NCBI GenBank assembly: GCA_021162615.1
Contig: JAGGYH010000100.1
Location: forward strand, 6,065 to 70,064
DNA length: 64,000 nucleotides
Source: Candidatus Aminicenantes bacterium
GTDB lineage: Bacteria; Acidobacteriota; Aminicenantia; Aminicenantales; Aminicenantaceae
Direction: 5' to 3'
The notes beneath the pieces are model-generated. The model was not told where the DNA came from. It ran no database searches and saw nothing but the letters and a program-made list of their open reading frames with translations. The translations under genes were made by a program, and so were the position numbers. Every line of letters starts with the position of its first letter. The first letter of the stretch is position 1. Of this stretch, positions 2,130 through 44,129 are shown piece by piece.

Positions 2130-2392
2130 CCTGAATTATTCATAAAATATGTATGCATCCCTAAATAAATTTATCATGATAAATGCTTTTTACAAGATTA
2201 TCCTATAAAGAACATGATTCTGATTTTAATTCATGTTATGATTTTAATTTTAATGCATACATATTTTACCTTACAGGCGAGCCGATCTCACAGCATCTGC
2301 TTTGTTACAGGGCATTCGCGGTGAAGAACCACAGCTTCATACCCTGTGCCTCGCATTTGCAGCGACCTCGACTCGTGAATAATCCAGGTTAA
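2127..2392 (+). mobile_element. Family-1 miniature inverted-repeat element, full copy A with GC-rich core (core 2274-2372)
   Basis: Left end TAACCTGAATTATTCATAAAA, right end CGACTCGTGAATAATCCAGGTTAA. The core is near-identical to copies at 11513, 38006, 42667 and 50417, but the AT-rich arm differs from copies B/C/D. Confidence 0.8.
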
Positions 2393-3005: not shown

Positions 3006-3086
3006 AATTGGATTATTCATAAAAAAATGGACATAAAAATCAGATATGGCTTGTACAAACATCGTTTTGTGAACATGCCAGTTTAA
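3002..3086 (+). mobile_element. Family-1 element, empty mini copy (two termini only)
   Basis: TTAAAATTGGATTATTCATAAAAAAATGG ... CGTTTTGTGAACATGCCAGTTTAA aligns with the canonical left and right termini. It starts on the stop codon of the upstream ORF. Confidence 0.6.
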
Positions 3087-8179: not shown

Positions 8180-9439
8180 ATGGACAAAAAAGATGCTTTT
8201 TTAAAAAGTTCAGCTTCTATAATAGAAGAGGTGGAAGAACAGCTTAATAAGATTCTCGATGAAAGAAGAAAAAAAATCCAGGAAGACCTGGAAGAAGCAA
8301 TAAACAGGCAGAAGGAAGAGGCTGAGAGCAAGATCAGCGAGATAGAGAATGAGGTCAACGAAGAGAGGGAGAGTTTAAGTGAATATAAAACGCTCCTGTC
8401 CGAGTTTGAGGATGAAAAAATATCCATAAAGGATGAGATAAAATCTCATCTTAAAATCGTTATGAAGCTTCAGTCTGAAATTGAATCCCTGACTGGAAAG
8501 TCTTTGGAAGAGCTGAAAATCATCGAAGAATTAAACACGAAGCTTGAAAATATAAATGAAGAGACAACTGAAAAGTTAACCACTCTGAGAAAGGAACTGG
8601 AAGAAAAATATGGAATAGAAACAGAAATCCCTGAAAGCATCGGGCCTGTAAATGAGGATTTTGACCTTGGTGATGAACTCCGGAGACTCAATAAAATCAA
8701 AGAACTTCTTGGGGAAAATGGAAGCCAAGGAGCTGTGCTGGATACTTTTGAGGAACAGATCGAAGAGGAGGAACAGGAGGAAGACGAAGCTGAAGAGTCA
8801 GAGACTGAAGAAAAAGCGGACGAGGAGCTGGAGCCAATGGAATCATCTGATGAGGATGAGAAGGATGAACTGGATGATGAAAAGGAGGAGGAAGAACTGG
8901 AGTTGGGAGAGGAACAGGAGGAAGAGGAAGAAGAAAAGGAAGATGAAGATAGAGGGCCTTATGAGAAATTAGAAAAATTCAAAAAAACCGAAGGCAGTGA
9001 ATCCGAAGCAAAGGTCGTTTATTTTGAAAATGAGGGTAAGATCGCTCTGGACGGTAGATATGTTATAGATGCAGTAACAGAGGGGATCAGCAAAGCGGAC
9101 AAGCTTTATGACAAGCTTGATGAGACCACTTCACCTAAAGAGCATTTTTTTATTAAACAGGAAATCATACAGGAGCAGGAAAATGTACGCAAACTTATTC
9201 TTGGCTGCCTGAGAGTCTGTGAGATGAAGGACTGCTTTTTCCCTCAGAGTACAAAAGATGTTTTAAATGAGGGAAAGCTTAAAGAAATGCTCGAGAGAGT
9301 GAGCATGGAAAACTGGAGCAACCAGGATGACTTTAACGGTTTTTCTGAGTATATTGATGATTTGAAGACAGAATTCGATGCAAAGAGCTCACCCCTGGAA
9401 GAGTATACAGAATCAATAATCAAAGAATTGTCAGGATAG
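8180..9439 (+). CDS. hypothetical acidic coiled-coil protein with an E/D-rich low-complexity centre
   Basis: 419-aa ORF with heptad-like E/K/L-rich N-terminal half, an uninterrupted E/D run around 8750-8950, and a globular-looking C-terminus. Consensus promoter upstream. Confidence 0.6.
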   Translation: MDKKDAFLKSSASIIEEVEEQLNKILDERRKKIQEDLEEAINRQKEEAESKISEIENEVNEERESLSEYKTLLSEFEDEKISIKDEIKSHLKIVMKLQSEIESLTGKSLEELKIIEELNTKLENINEETTEKLTTLRKELEEKYGIETEIPESIGPVNEDFDLGDELRRLNKIKELLGENGSQGAVLDTFEEQIEEEEQEEDEAEESETEEKADEELEPMESSDEDEKDELDDEKEEEELELGEEQEEEEEEKEDEDRGPYEKLEKFKKTEGSESEAKVVYFENEGKIALDGRYVIDAVTEGISKADKLYDKLDETTSPKEHFFIKQEIIQEQENVRKLILGCLRVCEMKDCFFPQSTKDVLNEGKLKEMLERVSMENWSNQDDFNGFSEYIDDLKTEFDAKSSPLEEYTESIIKELSG

Positions 9440-11479
9440 GGAATTTAAATATTTTCCCAGCATCTTTTTATTCTCAAGTGACATTTTAGTGAACTCAATT
9501 CCTGCATAATAGTAAGAGAGGTGTCCGTTTCCTTTATGTGAATAGACCACATGTCCTCTGCATTCAAAGGCCTTGTTTGTCAGAACAACAATAAGATCTA
9601 GAGTTTTGTCAGGGGGGATCAGAATGTTGCTGGAGACTTTAGCCCCTCCCCGGCTTATATTTATTGTTTTTGTGGCTTCATGGCCTTTTTTGTCTTTATA
9701 GATCAGAGGGATGGAAGAATAGTATCTTGGATATCTCCTTTTTTCTTCAGGGAATTTAGCATCTGGTTTGATAAGAAAAGAGCTTTTTTCCGGCTTTGAG
9801 ATGCGCCTGTGATATACGGAGATCTTATTTTTTTCAAAGGCCTTTTCTTCTTTTTTACTTAGGAAAGAAGTCCTTTTTCCTTTGGCTTCAGACAAAGCAA
9901 TGTCAGCCTCGTTAACGAGGTGTTTCAAATTTTCTGTGTTTATGGATCGGGGGGATTTGAATTTATCTTTTGAAAAATTAGTGATCCCAAAGCTCATAGT
10001 GAGATTGTTCCTGGGCTGTATTTCCTGGTTATCAAAGTAGGTCTCTTCTACGTTTTTCCTTATCCTATCCGTAAACATGAGGGCTTCCTCTTCGTTTTCT
10101 ATGCCGGATAAAAAGAATAAAAACTCTTCTCCTCCGTAACGGCAGAGAAAATCTTCCTCACGTATGGACACCTTGAGGATTCCTCCCAGCTTTCTCAATA
10201 AGCGGTTTCCTGACTCATGGCCTAACCTGTCATTATAATTTTTGAACCAGTCGACATCTCCCATTACAAGAGCGTAGCTTCCTTCTTCCCGGTGCCTTTT
10301 ATTTTCCTGTATGATTTTCTGGATGACCTTTTCAAAGAAAGGCTCGGGTCTCAAAAGTCCAGTCAAAGGGTCGTATTGGATCAAGTTAAGTTTTGTTATG
10401 GCTATGGATATGTGTTCGGATAGATGGATAAGTGTATCCTGGTCGATCTGATCAAAACCCTGTGGAGCGAACTGCTGGTCCTTTTTCTTGTTATAGACTT
10501 CAAGCACTCCAATGAGTTCGTTTTTGTATATGATGGGGATACAGATTATGCTGTATAGAGGGGAATTCAACTGTTGTTGGTAACGGGAGCTGACTCCGGC
10601 ATCTTTTTTTATCCCAGCAGATCTTATTATTTTTGTGAGCCGGGCTGATTGAGCAGCAAAGTCATCATCGTTTAAGCGAACGATATGCTTTGTGAAATCG
10701 ACATGGGAGAGGATGGAATCATCCCATACCAGAGGTTTTAAATATTTGTCGCTGGAACGGGTCTCTTCAAGAATGTAGATGGTCGTCCCGCTGGCGTTTA
10801 TGAGTTCTTTGATGTCAGAGATGGTATCAATCAGGCTGGTTACATCATTGGCCATGTAAAGTTTTTTCAGAAGCGTTTCTATCTTAAGCCTTTCTTTTCT
10901 AAAATGGTCATATTTAGCTTGAAAGGCAATGCGTTTTTCGATTTCCTTGACTATGGATGATTTGATAAACTTTTTTATTTTGTTTATCTCATAAAAGGCT
11001 TTCTTGTAATCTATTTCTTTTTTGTCAGCGGATTTTTTGAGGGCCTGGACTTCAAGAAGAAGATGCGAGTGTTTTATGGCTGTTTCAAGAGAACGCCTGA
11101 AGGAACTTTTGCTGCTTTCTGATTGAGAGAACACAAAGGTAGTGGCAAACCGATTTTGAGGCCATCCTCTGGCTGTATTTATTGTTTCTTTCTCTGAATA
11201 TCCTGTTATGATAATGCTGGTCGTGTTCTTGAAAATTCCCTGGAGGAGGGAATAGCTGGCGAGAGAGAAATCAGCTATCAGGACATTGAAATCCAGGGAT
11301 TTTGCAAGAGAAGCTGCTTTGTCAATGCTGGGAGCATAGTGCACTCGGGCTGTATCAGGACACAGGCCGTCAAGAAAAAAAGCTTCATTGCTGTTGTTGT
11401 TGAGAATAAGGATGTCTTTTGGAAAGCTGCGGACTCGGTAGTTATTTATAGAATTTTTTTGGCTGTTGCTTTTATCCAA
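9431..11479 (-). CDS. diguanylate cyclase with REC-like N-terminus, GAF-like middle, GGDEF domain and C-terminal PilZ domain
   Basis: RYGGEEFLFF (GGEEF active site). C-terminal RRYPRYY...INISRGGAKV matches the PilZ RxxxR / D-x-S-x-x-G pattern. Confidence 0.85.
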   Translation of the reverse strand: MDKSNSQKNSINNYRVRSFPKDILILNNNSNEAFFLDGLCPDTARVHYAPSIDKAASLAKSLDFNVLIADFSLASYSLLQGIFKNTTSIIITGYSEKETINTARGWPQNRFATTFVFSQSESSKSSFRRSLETAIKHSHLLLEVQALKKSADKKEIDYKKAFYEINKIKKFIKSSIVKEIEKRIAFQAKYDHFRKERLKIETLLKKLYMANDVTSLIDTISDIKELINASGTTIYILEETRSSDKYLKPLVWDDSILSHVDFTKHIVRLNDDDFAAQSARLTKIIRSAGIKKDAGVSSRYQQQLNSPLYSIICIPIIYKNELIGVLEVYNKKKDQQFAPQGFDQIDQDTLIHLSEHISIAITKLNLIQYDPLTGLLRPEPFFEKVIQKIIQENKRHREEGSYALVMGDVDWFKNYNDRLGHESGNRLLRKLGGILKVSIREEDFLCRYGGEEFLFFLSGIENEEEALMFTDRIRKNVEETYFDNQEIQPRNNLTMSFGITNFSKDKFKSPRSINTENLKHLVNEADIALSEAKGKRTSFLSKKEEKAFEKNKISVYHRRISKPEKSSFLIKPDAKFPEEKRRYPRYYSSIPLIYKDKKGHEATKTINISRGGAKVSSNILIPPDKTLDLIVVLTNKAFECRGHVVYSHKGNGHLSYYYAGIEFTKMSLENKKMLGKYLNSLS

Positions 11480-11512: not shown

Positions 11513-11773
11513 TTAACCTGACCTATTCATAAAAAAATGGCGATGAGCAATTTTTTGTTTTGCTTTCAAGGATATGCATACTTTTTAAAAAAATGACAAC
11601 TGAAATATCTTTGCCTGTTTTCACTTTCATTTTAATCGCCATTTTTTTACCTTTCAGGCAAGCCGATCTCACTGCATCTGCTTCGTTACAGGGTACTCGT
11701 GGTGAAGTACCACAGCTTCGCACCCTGTGCCTCGCATCTGCAGCAACCTCGACTTGTGAATAATCCAGGTTAA
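11513..11773 (+). mobile_element. Family-1 element, full copy B (core 11655-11753)
   Basis: TTAACCTGACCTATTCATAAAAAAATGGCGAT ... CGACTTGTGAATAATCCAGGTTAA, flanked by TTAA on both sides. Confidence 0.85.
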
Positions 11774-11942: not shown

Positions 11943-12015
11943 GCGCCTGTAGCTCAGTGGATAGAGTGTCGGTCTCCGGAACCGAAGGTCGCGGGTTCGA
12001 ATCCCGCCTGGCGCA
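11943..12015 (+). tRNA. tRNA-Arg (anticodon CCG)
   Basis: Cloverleaf with acceptor GCGCCTG/CTGGCGC (one U-U mismatch). Anticodon stem TCGGT/ACCGA with loop CTCCGGA. T-arm GCGGG-TTCGAAT-CCCGC. No encoded CCA. Confidence 0.9.
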
Positions 12016-14691: not shown

Positions 14692-14778
14692 CTATGGTTT
14701 CATAAAATACATGAAAAAGAACAAATCATTATAATATCTTACGAATGGCTTCACAATATTTTTTTTGCTAAATCATCC

Positions 14779-15010
14779 GGGGACGTCCCATTAGGTACCA
14801 CTCTATAAAATCCCGCTTGTTTGCACGGCTTACTACCAGAATGAGATCTTCACTTGTCCTGCATCGTTGGTACATACTCATAGAGGAACTTTCTTCTTCA
14901 GGATGGCGGTAGTGTATTAAATAGAAATAGTTCAGAGGGGGACAATCTGGAATATTTTTTAATATCCAGCGGATTCAGTAATATAGGGTGGTACCTTATG
15001 GAGCGTCCCC
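14779..15010 (+). mobile_element. Family-2 palindromic element, copy 1 (~28-bp terminal inverted repeats around GGTACC)
   Basis: GGGGACGTCCCATTAGGTACCACTCTATA ... TATAGGGTGGTACCTTATGGAGCGTCCCC. About 80 percent identical by eye over its full length to 32019-32246. Confidence 0.75.
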
Positions 15011-15064
15011 CATAAGAAGAAAGGTTTACTGTTTCCCGGTTTTTTGATATATTCGTTTCAAATA

Positions 15065-24415: not shown

Positions 24416-24477
24416 CCTGACATATTTACAAACAATAACTGAAACAGCATTCTCGACTTGTGAATAATCCAGGTTAA
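24412..24477 (+). mobile_element. Family-1 element, empty mini copy
   Basis: TTAGCCTGACATATTTACAAA ... CTCGACTTGTGAATAATCCAGGTTAA. The stop TAG 24413-24415 of the upstream gene lies in its left terminus. Confidence 0.65.
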
Positions 24478-29805: not shown

Positions 29806-30081
29806 GGACCGTGCTAGATGGGGAGTTAGCGGTGCCCTGTAACTCACAATCCGCTAAAGTGAGGTTGAATTCCCTGCTGAGGCAGCCAGCTTTTTCTGGC
29901 CGGTACTTATGTAAGTGGTGTTGAAGGTATGGGCCCTGTGCAAAGTGCACTTTGTAAACCCCGTCAGGACCGGGAGGTAGCAGCGGTAGCAGAGTTGCTT
30001 CTTGTGCTGCAGGTTCGCCTTGCCAGAGCTAACTGCATAGGATACGCAGGGGAAGTTATGTCAAAGCCGGGTGCACGGTCC
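29806..30081 (+). ncRNA. ffs: signal recognition particle RNA, long Bacillus-type (with Alu domain)
   Basis: 5' GGACCGTGC pairs with 3' GCACGGTCC. Blocks recalled from B. subtilis scRNA are present: GGGGAGTTAGCGGTGCCCTGTA, CAATCCGCT, AAGTGGTGTTGA, GTCAGGACCGGGAGGTAGCAGC (domain IV), GAGCTAACTGC. A T7 run follows. About 276 nt. Confidence 0.9.
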
Positions 30082-31956: not shown

Positions 31957-32018
31957 TCTTAAAACCCTTTCCTTTGATTTTCTATCATATTGGAATACAG
32001 CCTTATAGTCAATCATAA

Positions 32019-32246
32019 GGGGACATCCCATTAGGTACCACCCTATAGAATCCCACTTATGTACGCGGCTTACTGCCAGAATGCGATCTTCCCTTGCCCT
32101 GCCTCGTTGGAATCCACTCATATAGGGACTTTGCAGGATTACGGTGGTGTATTAAATGCAAACAGCTCGAAGGGAGAAAATCTGAAATATTTTTTAATAT
32201 CCAATGGATTCAGTAATATAGGGTGGTACCTAATAGAGCGTCCCCC
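32019..32246 (+). mobile_element. Family-2 palindromic element, copy 2
   Basis: GGGGACATCCCATTAGGTACCACCCTATA ... TATAGGGTGGTACCTAATAGAGCGTCCCC. Same orientation as copy 1. Confidence 0.75.
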
Positions 32247-32259
32247 ATTTATTTAACAT

Positions 32260-33720: not shown

Positions 33721-33870
33721 AACCTGAATCATTCACAAGTCGAGGTTACTGTGTTATTGCAAACGGCCGCAAGGGAGTGCGGCAATCTCATTGTGACAAG
33801 GGAGCATCATGAGATAACCACGTCGCTGCGCTCCTCATGATGGTGTTGTGTTAGAACCTTGAAACCAAGT
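33721..33870 (-). mobile_element. Family-1 right terminus (reverse orientation) followed by a third, hairpin-rich cargo; far boundary uncertain
   Basis: AACCTGAATCATTCACAAGTCGAGG, then CCGCAAGGGAGTGCGG and CATCATGAG..(17 nt)..CTCATGATG hairpins. It begins 21 nt after tRNA-Ser. Confidence 0.5.
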
Positions 33871-33878
33871 TAGGAGAC

Positions 33879-33896
33879 ATCTGTTTAAAAACAGAT
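33879..33896. terminator. palindrome ATCTGTTT-AA-AAACAGAT between tRNA-Ser and the convergent lipid kinase gene
   Basis: AT-rich 7-8-bp stem, 3 nt beyond the stop of the minus-strand gene. Possible bidirectional terminator, but weak. Confidence 0.3.
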
Positions 33897-33898
33897 AA

Positions 33899-34822
33899 TC
33901 ATCCAAGGATTTTTATGGCAGAGGAAAGGGCCGAGACTTTAAATTCTTTGATCCCTGAAATGACTTTCCCGTCATATTGGACGCTCATGGGCTCATGGGA
34001 TTTAACCGTGAAGTCTTTACTGCGGAAAAATTGGATTTCCTTTCTTTTGACATGTTTTCCCCTCAATACAAGGTATGCCAGTTTTGTTGTTTGAAGAAGA
34101 GATGTGCTGCTGACAATACTGCAGTTTATTTTTCCGTCAAAAGGGGATGTGTCCGGACAGACTCTCAGACCCCCTGCATAACAGGGAACATTGGAAAATA
34201 TGATGATAGAGAAAGCGACCTCGGTTTCAAAGTTTTCCCCTGACAGCCTTATTTTCAAGGGGATTTTGTTTTTTTTGAAAGAATCCCTTCCCCCTAAAAA
34301 TCCGGCCATCACCTGAAACCCTTTCCCAAGTTTTGCCTGCACGGGATGGCGTTTCCAGTATTCGGATATGAATTGATTTATGGTAACTCCCAATCCAAGG
34401 CTTAACGAACCCACGAAATATATTTTTTCAGATCTTCCCTTTATATCAAGGAGACAGATATCCATCCTATGTGTTTTGCCCTCTTTTAAAGAAGCAAGAA
34501 TGGATTTAGAGGAACAGCTGTCCAATGATTTGGCTATGTCATTTGCTGAGCCTGTAGGGATCATGCAAAGAGCCGGATTATATGGAGTTTTATAGATTTC
34601 AGAAGCAACGATCTGGAAGGATGTATCTCCGCCCACGATCATAATGACCTGGAATGATTCGGCTTTTTCTCTGGCAAGCTGCATGAGATGGTTTTCCGAT
34701 TCAGAATCAAACCACTTAAAGGATAGGGAGTTTTTTTTTAAATTTTCCTTTATACATTCCTTTTTTTTTAAAGACAGGCCTCGCCCGGAAGAAGGATTGA
34801 AGAGGATAGCGACTTTATCCAT
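33899..34822 (-). CDS. diacylglycerol/lipid kinase family protein (YegS/BmrU-like)
   Basis: NPSSGRG N-terminus, GGDTS (GGDGT-like) motif, ~300 aa. Confidence 0.75.
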   Translation of the reverse strand: MDKVAILFNPSSGRGLSLKKKECIKENLKKNSLSFKWFDSESENHLMQLAREKAESFQVIMIVGGDTSFQIVASEIYKTPYNPALCMIPTGSANDIAKSLDSCSSKSILASLKEGKTHRMDICLLDIKGRSEKIYFVGSLSLGLGVTINQFISEYWKRHPVQAKLGKGFQVMAGFLGGRDSFKKNKIPLKIRLSGENFETEVAFSIIIFSNVPCYAGGLRVCPDTSPFDGKINCSIVSSTSLLQTTKLAYLVLRGKHVKRKEIQFFRSKDFTVKSHEPMSVQYDGKVISGIKEFKVSALSSAIKILG

Positions 34823-34918
34823 TTTGGTTCATGATTATAACACAGTTTGAAGCCTGAAGAAAAAGATGGTGGCTGAGAGTTAAGGCTTTATACCTTTATG
34901 TTTTATAAGGGGGAGAGC

Positions 34919-34943
34919 TTTTTTTATGAGTAGGTCAGGTTAA
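34919..34943 (-). repeat. Family-1 left terminus (reverse); may close a ~115-bp element starting near 34829
   Basis: TTTTTTATGAGTAGGTCAGGTTAA. The stop codon (34940-34942) of the DUF2061-like gene lies in the TTAA. Confidence 0.5.
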
Positions 34944-35339: not shown

Positions 35340-35367
35340 GAATCATCCTTTAACATGACTTATTCAT
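35340..35367 (+). repeat. solo Family-1 left terminus upstream of tRNA-Ser(GCU)
   Basis: TTAACATGACTTATTCATAAAAAAATGG. Confidence 0.55.
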
Positions 35368-38005: not shown

Positions 38006-38259
38006 ACCTGGATTATTCACAAGTCGAGGTTGCTGCAGATGCGAGGCACAGGGTGCGAAGCTGTGGTCCTTCACCGCGAGTGCCCTGTAACAAAGCAGAT
38101 GCAGTGAGATCGGCTTGCCTGTAAGGTAAAAAAATGGCGATTAAAATGAAAGTAAAAACAAACAAAAATATTTCAGTTGTCATTTTTTTTAAAAGTATGC
38201 ATATCCTTGATATCAAAACAAAAAAAGTAACATCGCCATTTTTTTATGAATAGGTCAGG
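38006..38259 (-). mobile_element. Family-1 element, full copy C (core 38023-38121), reverse orientation
   Basis: ACCTGGATTATTCACAAGTCGAGG ... CGCCATTTTTTTATGAATAGGTCAGGT. Confidence 0.85.
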
Positions 38260-42466: not shown

Positions 42467-42666
42467 TGTTCTTTTTTTTCGCATCATTATAACACATATC
42501 CGGATTAATTCACGAGCTAATGTCAGATCTTGTGCTCTCAACTTTCGTCATGCAAGCTGGTCCTTCAGCCCGCTGATTTTCACCGTCGAGTAAAAGCAGC
42601 CGAGAGATAGCAAATTTTCTTGCATAACCCTGTGTTATATGGTAGTTAATAATTTCATATTAATCA

Positions 42667-42927
42667 TTAACCTTGATTATTCACAAGTCGAGGTTGCTGC
42701 AGATGCGAGGCACAGGGTGCGAAGCTGTGGTCCTTCACCGCGAGTACCCTGTAACGAAGCAGATGCAGTGAGATCGGCTTGCCTGAAAGGTAAAAAAATG
42801 GCGATTAAAATGAAAGTGAAAACAGGCAAAGATATTTCAGTTGTCATTTTTGTAAAAAGTATGCATATCCTTGAAATCAAAACAAAAAATTGCTCATCGC
42901 CATTTTTTTATGAATAGGTCAGGTTAA
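42667..42927 (-). mobile_element. Family-1 element, full copy D (core 42687-42785), reverse orientation
   Basis: TTAACCTTGATTATTCACAAGTCGAGG ... CGCCATTTTTTTATGAATAGGTCAGGTTAA, flanked by TTAA on both sides. Confidence 0.85.
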
Positions 42928-42989
42928 TAAGATAAGGTTAAGCTACATGATAGGAAGAGAATCCAATTCAATAAAGAAAGAGGATAAAT

Positions 42990-44081: not shown

Positions 44082-44129
44082 TCCGGCTTATTCACAAGCC
44101 GCCGTTTTTTTATGGATAGGTCAGGATAA
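44079..44129 (-). mobile_element. Family-1 element, ~50-bp empty mini copy abutting the gcvT stop
   Basis: TAATCCGGCTTATTCACAAGCCG + CCGTTTTTTTATGGATAGGTCAGGATAA is just the two termini back to back. Confidence 0.6.

Follow-up and report, generated by a model that had tools for sequence, protein, structure and literature searches.

A covarying, strand-specific stem-loop inside a MITE family of Candidatus Aminicenantes

MITEs classically fold into long RNA stem-loops (PMC3184786). The bcr1 element is flanked by 5-bp direct repeats, is transcribed and adopts a fold of two stem-loops that is kept by compensatory changes (PMC3184786), bcr elements as a group are located in untranslated regions (PMC3446304), and elements of the ERIC and Correia/NEMIS type are treated in the same review (PMC3184786). 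The element described here comes from a 64-kb stretch of Candidatus Aminicenantes DNA, analysed as a whole and called the window in what follows. Like bcr1, bcr2 and bcr3 of the Bacillus cereus group, it is short, non-coding, high-copy and intergenic, with short direct repeats at its flanks. With bcr1 in particular it shares a cruciform-like fold of two independent stem-loops supported by compensatory changes and a frequent location in a UTR or operon spacer. Notwithstanding these likenesses, there is no sequence relation between the two, which belong to different phyla; bcr1 measures ~155 bp and duplicates 5 bp, in contrast to 253 bp and a 4-bp YTAR duplication here. Furthermore, a long GC-rich rod, interrupted at regular intervals by purine-rich internal loops, makes up one arm of the present element.

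The ERIC elements of enterobacteria and the Correia/NEMIS elements of Neisseria are also imperfect palindromic, intergenic MITEs with terminal repeats, and are thought to form RNA hairpins in co-transcribed mRNAs, with orientation-dependent effects. They consist, however, of one long palindrome made from two halves, whereas the internal hairpin of the element described here is separate from the terminal repeats and, unlike theirs, can be exchanged for other cargo modules. Correia elements duplicate TA, as opposed to 4 bp here. The family resembles REPINs and the REP-RAYT system in its high-copy intergenic hairpins of ~100 nt and in its evolution as a population of master copies. REPINs lack terminal inverted repeats and target duplications and are marked by GTAG/CGTC tags and a RAYT gene, none of which applies here; membership of the REP/REPIN-RAYT group was rejected on the presence of terminal repeats and target duplications and the lack of a RAYT gene nearby. 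An IS200/IS605-type PATE with an omega-RNA was likewise discarded, as a variable 4-nt sequence is duplicated on both sides and neither TnpB nor TnpA adjoins. Elements of the IS200/IS605 type have no terminal repeats or duplication, insert 3' of a fixed tetra- or pentanucleotide and are linked to TnpA(Y1)/TnpB. The element described here is short and without a transposase gene, carries terminal inverted repeats, is flanked by a target duplication and is dispersed in polymorphic copies. It is thus a new MITE family in an uncultivated phylum, similar in its workings to bcr1 or ERIC and unrelated to them in sequence.

Element anatomy and copies

The segment that the original prediction had singled out as a conserved core forms the stem-loop in the interior of a MITE, a non-autonomous transposable element ~253 bp long. 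It is not a free-standing module, but the interior of a unit with terminal inverted repeats and 4-bp target duplications. The five proposed copies, at 2274-2372, 11655-11753 and 50544-50642 on the forward strand and at 38023-38121 and 42687-42785 on the reverse strand, were all confirmed. An 81-nt core pattern allowing up to three mismatches gave 3 matches in the window and 0 in 100 shuffles, repeat finding connected all five copies, which can be aligned over ~130 nt, and a covariance model of the core found exactly these five (E-values 2e-48 to 3.5e-43), with no score above 17 bits elsewhere in the window. As had been noticed, the core is richer in GC than its surroundings (0.58, against 0.28 in the arm and 0.43 in the whole window).

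On the structured strand, the element opens with the terminal repeat CCTGGATTATTCA, which is followed by the ~100-nt GC-rich rod hairpin, a 3-bp mini-hairpin and an AT-rich arm closed by A6-7UGGCGAU/AUCGCCAU6-7, and ends with the terminal repeat UGAAUAGGUCAGG. Within the element, nothing but the 13-nt terminal repeat precedes the hairpin, so that the element has no space for a promoter of its own. No conserved promoter was seen between arm subfamilies in the arm alignment, and a scan of copy D for sigma-70 promoters and terminators returned predictions no commoner than in shuffled sequences. On the opposite strand one terminal repeat reads CCTGACCTATTCA and its counterpart TGAATAATCCAGG. These 13-nt inverted repeats (CCTGnnnTATTCA; consensus CCTG(A/G)nnTATTCA and TGAATAnnnCAGG) are conserved in 150+ copies. 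The arm has a closing stem of its own, A7-TGGCGAT/ATCGCCA-T7, which is compensated between copies, ATGGCGAT/ATCGCCAT being replaced by ATGCCGAT/ATCGGCAT in copy E and by TATGTATGCAT/ATGCATACATA in copy A. The arms of copies A and E, earlier taken to be unrelated to the others, are indeed unlike the arms of B, C and D, yet the terminal repeat and the compensated closing stem are retained in them. Copies B, C and D are 93-96% identical to one another, and a length of 250-259 bp, with a mode of 253 bp, was found for 58 of the 78 complete copies. The window copies and their derivatives are listed in Table 1.

Table 1. The MITE and its derivatives in the window; for copies A to E the strand is that on which the structure is formed.
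Feature	Position	Strand	Core hairpin	Flanks	Remarks
MITE copy A, 259 bp	2130..2388	-	2278-2375	CTAA and TTAA	Antisense to both adjoining genes
Solo terminal repeat	near 3010	+			
MITE copy B, 253 bp	11517..11769	-	11659-11756	TTAA/TTAA (target duplication)	Upstream of GGDEF gene (9431-11479, minus strand)
Mini derivative, 58 bp	24416..24473	+		TTAG and TTAA	Both terminal repeats, interior almost absent
Partial relative	33723..33860	+			Core-side terminal repeat and outer stem (CCTGAATCATTCACAAGTCGAGGTTAC), then a different GC-rich cargo module of the type 'GAGGAGCG.AGCGACG'
Solo arm-side terminal repeat	34922..34940	-			
Solo terminal repeat	near 35354	+			
MITE copy C, 253 bp	38007..38259	+	38020-38117	TTTA and TTTT	Neighbours metE (minus strand) and DUF711 gene (plus strand)
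MITE copy D, 253 bp	42671..42923	+	42684..42781 (+), ~98 nt; rod of four helices with conserved purine-rich internal loops between	TTAA at 42667-42670 and 42924-42927	Between argS (minus) and gcvT (plus); order on +: core-side terminal repeat, core hairpin, AT-rich arm, arm-side terminal repeat
Solo terminal repeat	near 44108	-			
MITE copy E, ~259 bp	50400..50658	-	50548-50645		Terminal repeats degenerate (TATGGATAATTTA ... TAAATTATCAAAT); surrounded by 42-nt direct repeats

Copies B, C and D lie 20-70 nt upstream of start codons in sense orientation. In copy E, the stop codon of glyS (50413-50415) falls inside the terminal repeat and inside the first 42-nt unit, so that repeat DNA codes for the final residues of GlyS. 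The 42-nt unit itself (AAATCGTGGATATGGATAATTTATAAAAAATGCCGATCAACC) comes from the arm-side end of the element and is present in 2-4 units depending on the strain (window 50396-50760; loci L115-L122).

The family is modular, with cargo modules that can be swapped, as variant elements keep the ends and outer stem but have a different interior at the hairpin apex. Such alternative interiors, with shared terminal repeats and outer stem, were observed at 33723-33860 of the window, in loci L030, L051, L057, L089, L092 and L096 and in many of L129-L248. They include a G/A-rich 'GGAAAA' module, other GC-rich modules, mini elements of 41-81 bp and a 'GCGAGGAGCGAAGCGACG...' long-hairpin module, the last of which is also added beside the core in variants of 290-350 bp.

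Beyond the window, a scan of 185,579 species genomes with a 19-nt loop pattern returned at least 110 loci. Among the matches listed, at least ~95 are true copies, and nearly all come from MAGs of Candidatus Aminicenantes or Acidobacteriota; some core-bearing MAGs are labelled 'uncultured Eubacteriales'. A single MAG holds at least 22 loci, and many copies lie ~70 nt from contig ends. An independent scan of metagenome contigs with a pattern of the core-side terminal repeat and outer stem added 120 further loci from anoxic sediments, ~70 of them with the canonical core. The viral collection gave one match only, by chance, within a phage ORF. In both the genome and the metagenome core alignments, the core was never seen without terminal repeats. 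The genes next to the copies are unrelated (metE, argS/gcvT, glyS, GGDEF, ABC-2 and many others).

With regard to other features of the window, an unrelated repeat of ~240 nt occurs twice (14766-15013 and 32011-32258, 83-86% identity), upstream of the ORFs starting at 15044 and 32296, and a 42-nt inverted match joins its ends. A bacterial SRP RNA of the large type lies at 29809-30078 (169.7 bits). There are tRNA genes at 11943, 33614 and 35407, two of which are abutted by element remnants (33723, 35354).

Target duplication and turnover

The target duplication was assessed in 90 elements with exact CCTG...CAGG termini. The 4 nt on either side are identical in 40 of them, where permutation expects 6.1, while the next 4 nt outward are identical in just 3. 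The duplicated sites are mostly YTAR (TTAA in 10 cases, TTAG in 7, CTAG in 5 and CTAA in 4), and the inclusion of the non-palindromic TTAG and CTAA indicates a true 4-bp duplication. Apart from YTAR, the sequences flanking the copies are unrelated.

The turnover of the element is confirmed by presence, remnant and absence alleles with identical flanks. The window's gcvT protein was found identical on 22 metagenome contigs, and the argS-gcvT spacer, with flanks that are 100% identical, holds the full element (window), a remnant of 54 bp bounded by the same two TTAA sites (loci L112-L114) or no element (L111). The element-free allele is 7 nt (TCATTAA) shorter than a precise empty site, as compared with window 42660-42930; it may have arisen by a microhomology (TTAA) deletion, or the inserted unit may have had 7 extra nt, and the allele may not represent the state before insertion. 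At the glyS-PilZ locus, one allele (L122) is devoid of the core-bearing part, and the others differ in the number of 42-nt units. For copies A and C, the comparison with empty sites met with neighbour proteins without a record or contigs that end within the repeat; all six metagenome contigs with this metE end inside copy C.

Fold, strand and selection

The core is a real, covarying and strand-specific structured module. Among 92 distinct cores from the genome set, 15 of the 34 predicted pairs are compensatory, 154 cells are changed on both sides and 97.5% of the cells are paired; none of 500 shuffles reached the observed values, and partners slid by 1-3 columns paired in only 25-42%. The 63 sequences of the metagenome set, which were aligned with MAFFT independently of any model and ascertained outside the apical region, gave comparable figures: 19 of 38 predicted pairs are compensatory, G-C to C-G swaps included, with 217 cells changed on both sides and 96.8% of the cells paired, as against 0-1 of 500 shuffles reaching these values and 31-40% pairing for partners slid by 1-3 columns. 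The coupled substitutions pointed out in the window copies, T50564 with A50629 and T2315 with A2339, fall on predicted pairs as described, and the variable base in GGTGAAG[g/t/a]ACC lies, as suggested, in the apical loop.

The metagenome set places the apical stem in the register GC-(U·Y mismatch)-GUGG / CCAC-GC around a loop of 3-5 nt. The internal loops are GG/GA, GA/GA, GA..GC/AA..GAA and GAA/GA, and the unpaired positions are purine-rich and better conserved than the paired ones. At full length, an alignment of 59 elements is consistent with a three-branch fold, in which 26 of 52 pairs are compensatory, made up of the terminal-repeat stem, the core rod with its 3-bp mini-hairpin and the closing stem of the arm. 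Subfamilies with different compensated stems have the same 253-bp length and the same junctions.

The absence of a match to known RNAs was borne out, since no Rfam family covers any copy at gathering thresholds and, at E-values up to 10, only chance matches to snoRNAs (14-22 bits) appeared. A hammerhead was rejected, the CUGAUGAG-like string in some cargo variants not being conserved, as were a retron ncRNA, given the lack of a reverse transcriptase and the multi-copy nature of an element with target duplications, and an integron attC site, given the lack of an integrase and of a cassette array. The proposal of a novel structured RNA or hairpin module stands in part: the module is structured, but it is the interior of a MITE, and probably neither an independent RNA gene nor a novel class. 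As a separate observation, the minus-strand sequence at 42560-42640, upstream of argS (CTCGACGGTGAAAATCAGCGGGCTGAAGGACCAGCTTGCATGACGAAAGTTGAGAG), is identical in all metagenome alleles and has GGTGAA..GAAGGACCA in common with the core apex; it has no Rfam match and may be an argS leader structure.

The strand on which the core was originally written is not the one that folds. On its reverse complement, G·U cells outnumber A·C cells by 492 to 17 in the genome set and by 262 to 23 in the metagenome set, and pairing on the opposite strand falls to ~82% (from the genome-set counts) and 86.8% (metagenome set). The tandem G·A loops exist on the structured strand only, the other strand having C·U mismatches in their place, and for the 281-nt region around copy D (42661-42941) the predicted energy is -93.9 kcal/mol, compared with -75.9 kcal/mol on the opposite strand. 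A palindromic double-stranded protein-binding site was discarded, as it leaves the G·U asymmetry and the compensatory changes unexplained. Where the neighbouring genes are co-directional, the structured strand is sense in 25 cases and antisense in 12 in the genome set, and in 19 and 7, respectively, in the metagenome set (pooled, 44 versus 19, p = 0.002), judging by gene calls that are crude longest-ORF calls. Replication-strand bias could be a partial source of this sense bias of ~2.3 to 1, because genes tend to be co-oriented with replication. Taken together, the sense bias and the G·U and G·A features favour an RNA fold in read-through transcripts, and the fold is most likely, to judge from these sequence features, one that RNA adopts upon co-transcription of the element with its neighbouring genes.

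Individual copies appear to decay freely, as pair types present in at most two sequences are mostly pair-breaking, with 49 disruptive and 17 preserving cases (A·C 17, G·U 9). Within subfamilies, divergence is 2.4% in the core (a value somewhat deflated by 19 pattern-fixed columns), 1.5-2.0% in the terminal repeats, ~2% in the arm stems and 6.1% in the arm interior. Terminal repeats matter for mobility only. Selection thus seems to keep the hairpin in the propagating master lineage and not locus by locus, which agrees with the loss alleles and with the great diversity of neighbouring genes.

Mobilisation and the role of the stem-loop

A staggered cut by a DDE-type transposase acting in trans is what the 4-bp duplication at YTAR-like sites suggests. 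YTAR is the target motif of IS5 (PMC5009759). A 4-bp YTAR duplication is thus common to the IS5 group and to this MITE, the termini of which start with CCTG and seem to differ from IS5-group ends. Among the groups of ISfinder, IS5 ends start with GG or GA, IS1380 has 'CC' ends and duplications of 4-5 bp, and IS701 duplicates 4 bp. As a lead, the YTAR duplication fits the IS5 group and the 'CC' termini seem to fit IS1380 better. In the ~230 loci (~1.4 Mb), the search for a transposase of the IS5, IS1380 or IS701 type with such ends was negative, as was that for any autonomous partner with these terminal repeats. An all-against-all comparison of the ORFs in both locus sets yielded orthologues only, which in the metagenome set are housekeeping genes by Pfam. 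The suggestion that the core might be found beside a transposase, a TnpB/IscB-type nuclease or a reverse transcriptase gene was not borne out at any of these loci, and that of a subterminal region of a catalogued IS holds in spirit, the core being the interior of a transposable element, but not literally, as no catalogued or autonomous IS was found.

Several candidate parents were set aside. Variant copies with a different 5' half proved to be cargo variants or copies interrupted by an IS, with unrelated neighbouring genes, and pairs of terminal repeats 0.5-3.5 kb apart enclose housekeeping genes. One such arrangement, at 33723-34940 of the window, has a DAG-kinase/YegS-like gene (33899-34822, minus strand) bracketed by a core-side and an arm-side terminal repeat that are correctly oriented to each other at a distance of 1.2 kb; its flanks are TGAA and TTAA, and it could be a chance juxtaposition of two remnants or a composite that carries a passenger. 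An IS1182-like IS in locus L037 has different terminal repeats and is inserted into the core, and was likewise rejected as a parent. This complete IS (L037 1-1913; terminal repeats CAGGCTGTGTCAT) splits the core immediately after ...CCGTATCT and encodes a 481-aa transposase with the domains DUF772, DDE_Tnp_1_6 and DDE_Tnp_1, which mark it as IS1182/IS5-like. Another core copy is interrupted at this very point by a derivative of ~155 bp with the terminal repeats of that IS (L100 4750-4905, minus strand). A second mobile family targets the hairpin.

The reading that appears probable as a whole joins the identity of the element as a MITE, selection at the level of the lineage and an RNA stem-loop in read-through transcripts. 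According to it, the MITE would insert at YTAR-like sites via a DDE-type transposase supplied in trans and reach dozens of copies per Aminicenantes genome, and its compact, stable stem-loop, lying in UTRs or operon spacers, would allow insertions to be tolerated or would act on mRNA ends, a role already proposed for bcr1, ERIC and Correia elements. Points against this reading are that no autonomous partner was found in the ~230 loci and that a cut-and-paste DDE mechanism gives no obvious reason for a strand-specific fold in propagation. Alternatively, the hairpin might go back to an autonomous IS, as part of its untranslated leader or subterminal region, in which the RNA fold would control translation of the transposase or prevent read-in transcription, much as in the control of IS200 and IS10-type elements, the MITE merely carrying it along. 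The structured strand does run from the core-side terminal repeat into the element, the direction expected of a transposase leader, and the other interiors sit at the hairpin apex, which would be the place of a gene in a full-length element; no full-length element was found in the ~230 loci, however, and the constancy of length and junctions across subfamilies with different compensated stems suggests that the fold was kept during the evolution of the MITE and not re-derived from evolving parents, which leaves such an inheritance unlikely. It is also quite unlikely that the fold acts as single-stranded DNA, read by a structure-specific enzyme or by host replication or repair during mobilisation, on the model of REPIN/RAYT, IS200/IS605 or integron attC sites. 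A strand-specific tolerance of G·T and tandem G·A loops would suit DNA as well, the conservation of the fold at the level of the terminal repeats suggests a link to mobility, and the second IS family was inserted twice at the same point of the hairpin; but HUH and peel-and-paste elements have neither target duplications nor terminal inverted repeats, so that the 4-bp duplications and terminal inverted repeats seen here are a misfit, the core never occurs without the terminal repeats, no RAYT, TnpA(Y1) or integrase gene lies near the copies, and the orientations of the five window copies in order (-,-,+,+,-) show no simple replication-strand bias.

Two further readings are less likely still. 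The strong covariation, the conserved loop nucleotides and the lack of an Rfam match, by which it would be new, are what one would expect of a structured non-coding RNA gene standing on its own, or of an RNA that regulates the adjacent genes in cis, as is the sense position of copies B, C and D ahead of start codons. Against this stand unrelated neighbour genes, the want of a conserved promoter with only 13 nt of element ahead of the hairpin, copies that are lost or cut to 54 bp in strains with identical flanks, private mutations without bias toward keeping pairs and ~30% of copies in antisense orientation. The core is probably not a stand-alone RNA gene, and this reading in either form is very unlikely. 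To see in it the remnant of a transposon guide RNA, or one acting in trans, for instance the omega-RNA of TnpB/IscB or the bridge RNA of IS110, is extremely improbable: such a role is suggested only by the size (~100-130 nt), the structure and the position beside the end of the element, whereas no TnpB, IscB, IS110 or reverse transcriptase gene adjoins any copy, terminal repeats with a target duplication are foreign to those families, the flanks have nothing but YTAR in common and Rfam, which in release 15 is without some guide-RNA families, gives no match.

One further conjecture, to which a low probability is given, is that the rod hairpin with its regular G·A-type loops is an obligatory cofactor or recognition module for propagation, as RNA or as folded single-stranded DNA. 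If so, its binder would be a structure-reading transposase or a host protein, and the family would constitute a modular 'cargo-swapping' MITE system in which mobility depends on nucleic-acid structure as well as on terminal repeats. This would account for a fold that equals the terminal repeats in conservation and for the fact that no ordinary transposase partner has been seen.

To our knowledge, all Aminicenantes are uncultivated and their genomes come from MAGs only. In this phylum the repeat breaks assemblies, occupies many promoter and UTR regions and provides stop codons, for instance to glyS; in annotation it should be masked or labelled as a MITE and not as a novel riboswitch-like RNA. 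The presence, remnant and absence alleles can serve as strain markers in sediment metagenomes. Lastly, the 150+ copies, rich in covariation, offer a data set on why MITE lineages keep strand-specific folds, and the conservation of master lineages as opposed to the decay of single copies argues for selection on propagation or on tolerability.
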